DNA of 64,000 nucleotides, from the IMG/VR virus record IMGVR_UViG_3300014203_000016, positions 1-64,000 of that record. One strand, given 5' to 3'. Under the pieces are notes generated by a model. That model was not told the DNA's origin and ran no database searches. It saw nothing but the letters and a program-made list of their open reading frames with translations. Source of the DNA: a virus. Its lineage: Duplodnaviria; Caudoviricetes. Each line of letters starts with the position of its first letter. The first letter of the stretch is position 1. The translations under genes were made by a program, and so were the position numbers. Of the stretch, positions 61,357-64,000 are shown piece after piece.

Positions 61357-62652
61357 TTACAAACCGCGTCTTTTGATTGGTTTCCGGCTCGATACTTGCC
61401 CGCGACGGCCCCAGCCGAGGCCATCGTTCGCGCTTTTCCTGCCGGCATAGCCGATATTGACCTTCCGTAAAGGCGGACTGCCCGGTTCATCCCATTCCTC
61501 AACGACGCTTCGTTTGTCCAAGCGCTGTTTGATGAGGTTGTTCAAGGGGTCTACGCGCATGACTCTCGTCACATGCGCGTTGCGGGCCGTTTCGGTTTGG
61601 TAAATCGTGTTGACCAAGTCCGGGTATTCCTCGATAAAAGCATAAAGCGCAAATATCATGGCATCCAATGCGTGTTCGTCTTCACTGGTGTAAACCGGTT
61701 CTTGCGTTTTCCCGGATACGCGCACGACTTGGTAGTTCGTCATCTGGCGGTGAATCACTTCGGATATCTCTTTGTTCGGAATCCGCAACTGTCCGCGTTC
61801 CAGTAACAGCGTGGTCTGGTTGACCAGGAACGGTTTCAGCGGCTTGCGTTCGAAGATGCGGGAAATCGGGTCGCGGACTTCCGTGGAAGAACCATAGAAT
61901 ACCCCTTTTACCTTTTCGCCCAACGCTTTACGCAAGATTTCGATTTGATATTCACCCGCACCCCGGTCAGGGTAGATGGCAAACGGTTTGTATTTCTCAT
62001 CCAGTTCCATTACCGTTTTCACGGTCAAATCGTAATGCATATCCGATTTCGGAATCTCGATATGGTTGATGACTTTGAAACGTCCGAATCCGGGTTCTTC
62101 GATGCCCAATTCTGGGCGCACCCGGCGTTCGTCGAATGGGTCGTATTGCATGACGACGATGTTCGATTGGTTCCCGAACTTATCAAAGTCGATACCGATA
62201 GCGACTGGACTGTCCGTATTGCTTCTTTCTTCGAACAGGTAAGGGCGCGAGGAAGCTTCATCGATGTATTCCTTGTTGAATACCCCGATAGTCTCGGTTC
62301 CAAACTCAGCCAGTACTTCGTGCTCATAAGCGACTTCCGAGAATTGCTGATGCAGTTCCCGTTCCATCGATGCAGACCACTCCGGGTTGGCCATGGACGG
62401 GATGTGGAACTCTTTCCAACCCTCGGCATCTTCGCGGACGTACTTCTTCGAATCGTACACATAACCCAATTGCTTGGTGTTGACCGGTGGCACCGCGCCG
62501 TCGTTGTTGAATTTCATTTCGACGCAGGCATTGTAGAACATCCCGCGCCGTCCGGTCGGGGTGGATGCCATCATGACACCGATACGTTTCGGTGCTTCCA
62601 GGGTGATGGCGTAAATCGTTTGGAAATCCTGGTCGGTCATATAATCGACTTC
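61357..62652 (-). CDS. terL: Terminase large subunit, 3' exon (rest of the ATPase plus nuclease domain)
   Basis: Begins EVDYM, completing Walker B. ASTPTG coupling motif; IGIDF and HALDA nuclease acidic motifs. Confidence 0.92.
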   Translation of the reverse strand, partial: EVDYMTDQDFQTIYAITLEAPKRIGVMMASTPTGRRGMFYNACVEMKFNNDGAVPPVNTKQLGYVYDSKKYVREDAEGWKEFHIPSMANPEWSASMERELHQQFSEVAYEHEVLAEFGTETIGVFNKEYIDEASSRPYLFEERSNTDSPVAIGIDFDKFGNQSNIVVMQYDPFDERRVRPELGIEEPGFGRFKVINHIEIPKSDMHYDLTVKTVMELDEKYKPFAIYPDRGAGEYQIEILRKALGEKVKGVFYGSSTEVRDPISRIFERKPLKPFLVNQTTLLLERGQLRIPNKEISEVIHRQMTNYQVVRVSGKTQEPVYTSEDEHALDAMIFALYAFIEEYPDLVNTIYQTETARNAHVTRVMRVDPLNNLIKQRLDKRSVVEEWDEPGSPPLRKVNIGYAGRKSANDGLGWGRRGQVSSRKPIKRRGL

Positions 62653-62716
62653 CGTCACCTTGCGGTAATCGCTACTTACCTCCCCGATTTCTCGGGGGAC
62701 GAGACCATATCATTAT

Positions 62717-62923
62717 TTAGTCGGTTTCCGGTTCGGGTTCTTCTACGTAATCGGCATGTTTGTGCTTCACCAGATGCATCTTTGTTCCTTCCAATTCCGG
62801 TCTGTGAACCAGATAGCCTTGTTTTGTGTCTAAACATAGAGGGAACTGCTCTCCTTGGTGGCCAAAATACCATAATCGTGTATCGTCTCCGTATCCTTTT
62901 AGCGTTGTTTTGATTTCTATCAT
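62717..62923 (-). CDS. Intron-encoded hypothetical protein in the P8 loop (68 aa)
   Basis: SD AGGAGG; stop codon within the 3' strand of P8; no nuclease motif seen. Confidence 0.55.
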   Translation of the reverse strand: MIEIKTTLKGYGDDTRLWYFGHQGEQFPLCLDTKQGYLVHRPELEGTKMHLVKHKHADYVEEPEPETD

Positions 62924-63036
62924 GCTAATCCTCCTAAATATTGTGCGCTTCGAATTAAGGGGGTTTCACCCGCCCGCTTGGGCCCTACTCCTGTTGCCGC
63001 ATCTCACGGCCGCCATAGGATGGTCGTTGAACGTTC

Positions 63037-63411
63037 CTAATTGGTTTGTTGTGCAAAGTGGTCTTTGAGAATCGTCTCAGCTACCGCTTGTGTCATCGCA
63101 CAGGGAAACAACTCCTGCACCGGGTAGCGTTGGCTTAAAGCTTCTTTCTCGATGGCGATAAGGCTGTCTGACATCAGCAGGCCGTCTGCATAGAGCTGAA
63201 TGAAGACATGCTGTTCCGTTTCGCTGGCAATTTTGTCGCAGAATAGGGTGTATTCCGTTTCCGTTTCGCCGTAGTAATACCACTCTTGCCCAATGAGGCT
63301 TCGCTTATGATTGCCTTGAGGAGAAGGAATCAACTTCTCTCTTTCTACATTGCGTAAAGTGGATTGGTTGGATTCTTCCATAAAAAACAATTCTCTTTCT
63401 TCCTGTTCCAT
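63037..63411 (-). CDS. Intron-encoded hypothetical protein overlapping the ribozyme core (124 aa)
   Basis: SD AAGGAG; reads through the Q element (codons GNHKRS); stop within the 3' strand of P6a. Confidence 0.55.
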   Translation of the reverse strand: MEQEERELFFMEESNQSTLRNVEREKLIPSPQGNHKRSLIGQEWYYYGETETEYTLFCDKIASETEQHVFIQLYADGLLMSDSLIAIEKEALSQRYPVQELFPCAMTQAVAETILKDHFAQQTN

Positions 63412-63490
63412 GTTTTATCTTCTCCTTTTAGGTTTCCATGAGTTCACACAATTCTTCGATTCATCTCACGATGAAAAGGGACAAAGTTTT

Positions 63491-64000
63491 ATCCATATAA
63501 AGCCAATCGGCCTTTTGTCCACGTAAGCTTGCGCCGCCCGACCCGCTTTTTGTTCCTGCGGTGAAGAGCTTGATAACAGAGCCGTTGTGGAATTTGATGT
63601 AATAGGGGTTTTTCGTTGTACTCTTGATGGAATTCCGTAGAATTTCGTTTGCTTCGATGAAGGTGTTCAGCTGGTCATAAATCAGCTTCGCTTGGCTGTC
63701 GTACGGGGTCGCTACGACGCAGGTTGCACCGCCTTGGGCCAATGCGCCACCGTTGGCTGTAAAGGCCACCCAGAGCATGTGTGCGCACATTGTCCATGTG
63801 TTGTGGACCAGGATGTCTTCGACAACCAAATTGTGCACTTCCGGGACAAAGACATCATAGGTCTGCTGGTCGCCCATCGGGATAATCGCGGTGACTTCTT
63901 CCCAATAGATATCCGAACGGGCCAAATCGTAGAGGAACGGGTACTGCAGGTTATCCGCATAACGGGCCGCTTTTTCTTCGGATAAGCCGATGTTGGGCCG
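63491..64000 (-). CDS. terL: Terminase large subunit, 5' exon (truncated; includes the intein C-terminus)
   Basis: Open frame from 64000. After the intein it reads TWTMCAH...VVATPYDSQA...LRGQKADWLYMD. Confidence 0.9.
63800..64000 (-). mobile_element. Intein, C-terminal part, inserted in terL
   Basis: SDIYWEEV...TYDVFVPEVHNLVVEDILVHN followed by Thr: blocks F and G with the terminal His-Asn and a +1 nucleophile. Confidence 0.92.

Follow-up and report, generated by a model that had tools for sequence, protein, structure and literature searches.

The large terminase (TerL) gene of an uncultured Bacillus-type jumbo phage is interrupted, between the Asp and Glu codons of its Walker B motif, by an intact group IA intron that carries two selected genes of new families. 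One of these, ORF-A, is interleaved with the ribozyme, and the other, ORF-B, fills loop L8; we put the probability of this overall reading at about 0.9. The intron occupies 838 nt (62653..63490) on the minus strand, as does its host gene, of the 64,000-nt stretch of DNA analysed, referred to here as the window. It was identified by an Rfam match (RF00028), by the similarity of its core to the SPbeta bnrdF intron and by covariation.

Nearly every characterised ORF of bacterial or phage group I introns is, to our knowledge, a homing endonuclease, intact or degraded. The novelty here lies in a conserved, non-endonuclease-like gene pair in a phage intron, the extent to which ORF-A is interleaved with P4-P6, and the occurrence of a free-standing twin of the pair. 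The intron lineage retains two small genes of a novel type under purifying selection across deep divergence, and one of them, ORF-A, uses the P5', P4' and P6 strands of the ribozyme as codons. The system is testable with synthetic DNA: the intron and its two ORFs are available, as are natural target alleles without the intron.

The TerL gene and its intein

The window represents bases 1-64000 of an 81.8-kb virus record. Relatives of the phage were found on contigs of 238-247 kb, and near-identical DNA occurred in wastewater, landfill, manure and freshwater metagenomes from 13 studies. The 3' part of TerL exon 1 (63491..64000, minus strand), delimited by continuous homologues, ends in ...GQKADWLYMD and, in the other direction, runs past the window to position 65140 of G000. 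Exon 2 (61357..62652, minus strand) reads from EVDYMTDQDF... to the stop and matched the PHROG terminase large subunit family phrog_2 (E=1.1e-15). The annotated TerL proteins of three Bacillus jumbo phages, vB_BauM_KLEB27-3, vB_BceM_WH1 and Edson, share 55% identity with it, and TerL of 0305phi8-36 shares 30%. Ligated exons read ...GQKADWLYMD/EVDYMTDQDF... (the slash marks the interrupted position, here and in similar strings below), so that the intron splits the Asp-Glu pair of Walker B. The string ADWLYMD/EVDYMTD is unbroken in about 25 intron-less TerL relatives from IMG/VR and GTDB genomes; uninterrupted Walker B motifs were found in relatives L018, L023-L031, L033-L046 and L048-L050, and also in KLEB27-3; the cultured phages WH1 and Edson likewise have no intron here. 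At the DNA level, the intron-less terL site reads ...TATATGGAT/GAAGT....

Exon 1 also holds an intein, the C-terminal part of which (63800..64000, minus strand; Pfam Intein_splicing, E=1.4e-5) ends in ...ILVHN and is followed by a +1 Thr codon at 63799-63797. The whole intein is about 405 aa long (63800-64000 of the window and beyond; G000 63461-65140, minus strand; full frame 559 aa) and splits Walker A between K and T (GRRLGK/C...VHN/T). In relatives, the intein matched LAGLIDADG_3 in addition to Intein_splicing. It ends 105 codons (about 310 nt) upstream of the intron and is also present in the intron-less relatives L018, L023, L027-L030 and KLEB27-3, more distant relatives being without it. 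Since TerL of the window holds both an intein and an intron, a functional terminase needs protein splicing as well as RNA splicing. Extra interruptions were observed in TerL exon 2 of relatives (L003:5245-6430, L001:5545-5683 and L016:6046-6080), with a 263-aa LAGLIDADG ORF lying between the exon 2 pieces of L003; exon 2 of the window is uninterrupted.

Boundaries and fold of the intron

A default Rfam scan at the gathering score of 50 gave no intron match. In a permissive scan of 62400-63700, the full Intron_gpI model (positions 1-253) was matched with 46.8 bits (E=1.9e-10), a score that falls below the gathering score because two large insertions, about 340 and 210 nt long, lie in loops. Homologous introns that carry less cargo scored 66-91 bits. 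By blastn, the segment P6'-J6/7-P7-P7.1 was about 75% identical over 91 nt to the SPbeta/phi3T bnrdF intron, and Staphylococcus phage introns were also matched, which fits subgroup IA with P7.1/P7.2.

All elements of the fold lie on the minus strand. The 5' splice site follows U63491, at the end of a 5' exon reading ...ATG GAT. In P1 (63479..63494), GGAU/AAA pairs with UUUGUCC, and the U63491.G63482 wobble at the splice site is invariant in 10 introns. P2 (63460..63475) comprises about 6-7 bp with a GUGA tetraloop, and the exon-1 reading frame stops here (UGA, 63463-63461). The stretch 63419..63451 contains the 5' strands of P3 (63451-63445), P4 (63442-63436), P5 (63432-63430) and P5a, the last with the ORF-A SD sequence GGAGAAG (63425-63419). 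Within 62941..63044 are found the 3' strands of P6a and P6 (63044-63031), J6/7 with the P7 5' strand (63030-63021), P7.1/P7.2 (approximately 63020-62951) and the P3 3' strand (62947-62941). The P8 5' strand (62940-62934, within 62930..62940) and L8 are followed by the P8 3' strand (62720-62714), J8/7 (62713-62708), the P7 3' strand (62707-62703), P9 with its GAAA loop (62697-62682), P9.1 (62680-62664) and the terminal G at 62653, directly before GAA GTC of exon 2. Assignments from P3 onwards were made by Rfam match and covariation, with blastn in addition for J6/7 to the P3 3' strand; the P8 5' strand was assigned by covariation.

Ten homologous introns (those of the window, L001, L003, L004, L006, L012, L014, L015, L016 and L019) were aligned with the ORF loops trimmed. 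RNAalifold recovered P1, P2, P3, P4, P5/P5a, P6/P6a, P7.2, P8, P9 and P9.1, and P7 was added by hand, for a total of 70 pairs. Standard pairs occupied 655 of 690 cells (95%) across the ten introns. Changes on both sides were seen in 38 of the 70 pairs, distributed over P2, P3, P4, P5, P6, P7, P7.2, P8, P9 and P9.1, and compensatory pairs made up 6/7 of P2 and 6/8 of P8. GNRA tetraloops cap P2 and P9 in nearly all ten introns. In the window intron about 70 nt separate P7 5' from P3 3', and P7.2 shows compensatory changes; P7.1 is present in the introns of the window, L016 and L019 and is shorter in the others. A preliminary description, made from the letters of the window, had claimed a complete group I core, and the full-length model match together with covariation in ten introns bears this out.

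Inside the intron, no sigma-70-like promoter or intrinsic terminator was found. A spliced contig joining exon 1 to exon 2 was not found in four public runs, all of which, including two labelled RNA-Seq, behaved as DNA. In one relative (L006:1196-1215), A instead of G precedes the 3' exon (...GUGAAUA/GAAGUU); the terminal G needed for group I splicing is missing, and moving the splice site breaks the frame. This allele could be splicing-defective, could be an assembly error, or could use a cryptic site.

ORF-A is interleaved with the ribozyme core

ORF-A (63037..63411, minus strand) encodes 124 aa and belongs to a new family; its N-terminal part lies in L5a, a linker is encoded by the core, and a beta-rich domain lies in L6a. 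The frame spans more than one loop. It starts in the expanded L5, runs through the P5', P4' and P6 strands and L6a, and stops at UAG (63039-63037) within the P6a 3' strand, where the preliminary description had placed its end. Codons 28-42, approximately, constitute the P5a', P5', P4', P6 and P6a 5' strands. This dual-use segment (63290..63326, minus strand) encodes ..PSPQGNHKRSLIG.. and is made up of the P5a 3' strand (63326-63320) and, at 63316-63290, P5 3', P4 3', P6 5' and P6a 5'. P5a is formed by the SD sequence of ORF-A pairing with CUUCUCC of codons 28-31.

In seven relatives with ORF-A 42-58% identical, 26 nt of this segment (63315-63290) are nearly invariant, with one C/U site, and synonymous sites are saturated outside the 26 nt. 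With more distant introns included, the 5' and 3' strands of P4 co-vary as CUCAUGG with UCAUAAG, UUCAAGG with UCUUGAG, UUCAGGG with UCCUGAG and UUUAGAA with UUUUAAG. These compensatory RNA changes force amino-acid changes in the protein, residues 35-36 of ORF-A being HK, LE or PE. Nei-Gojobori analysis of the L5 and L6 parts of ORF-A gave pS of 0.5-0.9, pN of 0.06-0.45 and dN/dS of about 0.1-0.25, and in the core-encoded codons pS falls to 0.1-0.3.

Eight close relatives of ORF-A were identified, and 42 at the 90% cluster level with a profile, of 99-142 aa. G41, W44, E49, P97 and F102 are invariant, and in many members the C-terminus is ERSTTI, as translated from J6/7-P7 (GAACGUUCAACGACCAUC). 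The AlphaFold model of ORF-A was of low confidence (pLDDT 60), and a fold search with it gave no fold match.

ORF-B fills loop L8

ORF-B (62717..62923, minus strand) encodes 68 aa. Its position in L8, described earlier, was reproduced with agreeing coordinates: the SD sequence AGGAGG (62935-62930) shares its first bases with the end of the P8 5' strand, and the stop UAA (62719-62717) is part of the P8 3' strand. When 1.8 billion representatives were searched exhaustively with a profile, ORF-B fell into a new small-protein family of 18 clusters at 50% identity, the members of which are 59-95 aa long, bar one spurious long hit. Omega was 0.06-0.2, and residues W18, Y19, G36, V39 and H56 are invariant. 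The C-terminus of many members is DD[IM]V, which J8/7 (GAUGAUAUAGUC) encodes. That the tails of the two ORFs are encoded by J6/7-P7 and J8/7 argues that both families have long been resident in such introns.

The AlphaFold model of ORF-B, likewise of low confidence (pLDDT 59.5), may, at weak scores, resemble an SH3-like beta-barrel, a class of nucleic-acid-binding domain that includes the integrase C-terminal domain and KOW. In L014 (617-895), the 92-aa ORF-B of the gene caller requires TAG to be read as Gln, and the conserved part begins after this TAG. The longer product thus probably reflects how the start site was chosen, not recoding.

Selection and family searches

Both ORFs are conserved under purifying selection in at least nine independent metagenomic relatives. 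Among homologues dN/dS, the measure proposed along with the preliminary description, was about 0.06-0.25 for both, indicating purifying selection, with synonymous sites saturated and no frame broken. In the intron-bearing clade, both ORFs are intact in every sampled member except L015, which is without ORF-A.

HNH, GIY-YIG and LAGLIDADG motifs had been reported absent from the two ORFs, and none was matched in Pfam, PHROGs or NCBIfam. The profile searches suggested at that stage likewise returned no decayed homing endonuclease, and revealed the conservation described above. Neither ORF, singly or as a family profile, had a significant match in Pfam, PHROGs, NCBIfam, PADLOC or PDB sequences, and 23 ORF-B and 25 ORF-A members matched no endonuclease family of Pfam up to E=5. 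The invariant residues are mostly aromatic or structural and spell no known nuclease site. Four weak leads were considered and not adopted: N4_GP8 for ORF-B (E of about 0.06 over 20 residues, in 4/23 members); YafO_toxin (PF13957) for ORF-A (best 15.5 bits against a cut-off of 25, one subclade only); a MerR HTH on the ORF-A of the window (E=0.07); and DUF6501, raised by language-model features (score 0.90, 166 shared features).

Distribution and recombination of the cassette

In all contexts read (L001-L009, L012, L014, L016 and L019), the gene order is TerL exon 1 with the intein, ORF-A, ORF-B and exon 2, with the interruption at the same codon. Relatives whose TerL is less than about 65% identical (L021-L051) have no such cassette within 6 kb of terL, and the ORF-A/ORF-B pair was not found near terL of cultured Bacillus jumbo phages. 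When both ORFs were compared by tblastn with 50,697 deposited phage records, and the ORF-B profile with 401 sampled genomes of Bacillota (the phylum of an Alicyclobacillus genome), no match was obtained.

A free-standing pair was found in L018, as an insertion of about 0.9 kb between a conserved upstream gene and terL. TerL of this relative has 977 aa, with the intein present and Walker B uninterrupted. Its ORF-A homologue has 142 aa (E=3e-6 database-wide, 2.5e-12 locally) and overlaps by 17 nt with its ORF-B homologue of 64 aa (E=3e-24). In the ORF-A homologue the N-terminal E-x-FF motif is retained and the linker is of equal length, but its sequence is no longer a ribozyme strand. A linker kept in length, with the ribozyme strand lost, suggests from sequence comparison that the L018 pair escaped from an intron, and not the reverse.

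The intron at Walker B of L015 (67 bits, Rfam) lacks ORF-A; P5 closes with GAAA and P6 with a 5-nt loop, and ORF-B is still in L8. Two tandem group I introns were observed in this relative (L015:1-670), with an exon of about 17 nt between them (...CGTACGTTTATCTGGAT); the first is without an ORF and the second is that at Walker B.

Judged by its nearest relatives along its length, the window intron is itself a recombinant (mosaic) of two lineages. The 5' core and ORF-A are nearest the L001 type (87% nt and 58% aa identity, respectively), and the P7-P3' region, ORF-B and the 3' core are nearest the L016/L019 type (93% nt, 84% aa and 83% nt, respectively). The long P7.1 insertion of the window is common only to L016 and L019.

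Proposed expression and function of the pair

The arrangement of the ORFs suggests how their expression might be controlled. The SD sequence of ORF-A pairs in P5a with the gene's own codons 28-31, and that of ORF-B abuts P8. With the SD sequences tied into helices and ORF-A running through P5', P4' and P6, translation of ORF-A would require the catalytic core to be opened by the ribosome; the folded core, in turn, would hide the ORF-A SD, so that splicing and ORF expression should be alternatives on one RNA. By analogy with the control of I-TevI, ribozyme folding and ORF translation should be mutually exclusive for any given RNA molecule, and expression would take place from unfolded or excised intron RNA.

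ORF-A and ORF-B may be inherited together as a nucleic-acid-binding module that serves the element itself. Such a module would promote the spread or retention of the cassette at terL, either as a nuclease of a new type or as a DNA-binding pair that recruits nuclease or recombination. An atypical homing or mobility function serving the cassette at terL is our tentative preference, held in the expectation that it may well prove wrong. The pair occupies the canonical niche of homing endonucleases, it is also found free-standing beside the same target gene, and recombination has taken place between intron lineages. However, no nuclease motif or family match was seen in Pfam, PHROGs, NCBIfam, PADLOC or PDB sequences, the invariant residues form no obvious metal-dependent active site, confidence in the structure models is low (pLDDT about 60), and we know of no two-subunit homing endonuclease. 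The intactness of the ORFs is more like lasting selection for a useful function than the gain and decay cycle of homing endonucleases, and the LAGLIDADG intein about 310 nt upstream could mobilise the intron by co-conversion, with no need for an intron-encoded nuclease. In its specific form, in which the pair is a two-protein homing endonuclease or a nuclease-recruiting DNA-binding pair, of families without kinship to known homing endonucleases, that evolved interleaved with the ribozyme and is able to escape the intron, the proposal is possible and somewhat doubtful. Were the pair a new mobility system, the few homing enzymes in use as scaffolds for genome engineering would gain a further family.

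That same intein, lying about 105 codons upstream with or without the intron, also lends itself to another reading, in which the ORFs are cargo of benefit to the phage and unrelated to intron mobility: they might, for example, assist or regulate the terminase or packaging, counter host defences or help to take over the host. The intron would then be a phenotypically silent parking place at terL, moved by recombination or by co-conversion with the LAGLIDADG intein. Strong and lasting purifying selection, the lack of decayed copies and the lack of nuclease motifs all agree with cargo. So does the location of the pair, always inside or immediately upstream of terL, the latter being the usual position of terminase partners. 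Yet the pair is absent near terL of more distant relatives and of cultured Bacillus jumbo phages, and from the 401 sampled Bacillota genomes; it is therefore no general part of the packaging machinery. L015 has ORF-B without ORF-A, neither PADLOC nor any named family was matched, and the interleaving of an unrelated gene with the ribozyme core is hard to explain. We consider both the cargo function and the parking-place role of the intron possible, if doubtful; if the ORFs are ordinary cargo, self-splicing introns can be gene carriers in phage genomes. The ORFs may instead be splicing cofactors, small RNA-binding proteins like maturases or chaperones that aid the folding of a heavily loaded ribozyme in vivo; a splicing factor here would be the first described for such an intron in a phage. 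The ORFs have co-evolved with the intron for long enough to read into core strands, its two large loop insertions may hinder folding, the ORF-B model would, if correct, be SH3-like or KOW-like, and some phage TerL and polymerase introns splice in vivo and not in vitro (PMC11878797). The fold matches are weak, however, we know of no bacterial or phage group I intron maturase, and in L018 the pair is intact beside a TerL without an intron at that site, so that this role appears unlikely.

The remaining explanations have less to commend them. The preliminary description had offered a choice between a vehicle for small functional genes and a pair of unrecognisable remnants. The former is favoured by the full-length ORFs, by limited amino-acid change and by the persistence of the pair outside the intron in L018. 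Small size, the lack of recognisable domains and low-confidence models could be expected of decayed homing endonuclease leftovers or chance open frames. However, the frames are conserved at full length down to about 30-45% identity, with saturated synonymous sites, dN/dS well below 1 and conserved SD sequences. Both families consist of small proteins only, and no longer relative of ORF-B emerged from the exhaustive profile search. The remnant reading was rejected on these grounds; comparative sequence data largely refute it, and we regard it as extremely improbable. Only slightly better is the case for a toxin-antitoxin-like addiction module stabilising the intron, in which ORF-A would be a toxin of the YafO/RelE kind and ORF-B the antidote. 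The arrangement as a two-gene operon in which one partner is small has the appropriate form, and five ORF-A members gave weak matches to YafO_toxin (E=0.02-0.06, profile positions 51-93 of 101). These five come from one close subclade and lie under the Pfam cut-off, though, whereas the ORF-A of the window and the family profile had no YafO match; the fold search found no RelE-like structure and PADLOC was negative. A module of this kind seems very unlikely.

Comparison with known systems

A close precedent is the T4 td intron with I-TevI (group IA2; PMC3984707). Like the window intron, it belongs to group IA and interrupts an essential phage gene, its ORF is looped out of the P6 region with ends that overlap core sequence, and the ribosome-binding site of the ORF is sequestered by RNA structure. 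It encodes one GIY-YIG endonuclease, whereas the window intron has two ORFs from two families without an endonuclease motif, and ORF-A differs from the td ORF in running from L5 through the P5', P4' and P6 strands to L6. The SPbeta bnrdF intron with yosQ (HNH) is the nearest nucleotide match to the core and is likewise of IA type with P7.1/P7.2, but differs in host gene and insertion site, and carries one HNH endonuclease instead of the pair.

TerL genes with group I introns have been described (PMC11878797). Those introns of Bastillevirinae resemble the window intron in being self-splicing and of group I, and in interrupting TerL of Bacillus myoviruses, with more than one in some genes; they carry VSR-like or HNH endonucleases or none, whereas the ORF families described here match none of 50,697 phage records. 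ORFs that overlap intron core sequence (PMC3984707, Fig. 2b) and, in fungal mitochondria, multi-ORF introns (PMC11835236) are also known. Organellar group I introns share with the window intron an ORF that doubles as core and the possibility of more than one ORF (PMC3984707, Fig. 2b; PMC11835236), but the ORFs of these fungal mitochondrial introns are LAGLIDADG or GIY-YIG endonucleases/maturases, in contrast to the new phage families. The free-standing pair of L018 recalls free-standing homing endonucleases and collaborative homing (F-CphI/psbA, mobE; PMC3984707), where a cassette is intronic or free-standing beside an intron-less target. Unlike F-CphI/psbA and mobE, the L018 pair has no recognisable nuclease domain and comprises two proteins instead of one.

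Other introns at the same codon

In L021, L022 and L032, a different group I intron with an unrelated frame is present at the same TerL codon. Where delimited (L021:5382-5971 and L032:5387-5970), this intron scored 66-91 bits in Rfam, in host TerL genes 57-63% identical, and holds a 162-aa frame, without relation to ORF-A or ORF-B, that extends from close to P2 as far as J8/7. An 83-aa frame on the L8 side of the L021 intron was considered as a relative of ORF-B and was found to be unrelated by comparison with the ORF-B profile. L032 has a further intron about 500 nt downstream (L032:6467-6812).
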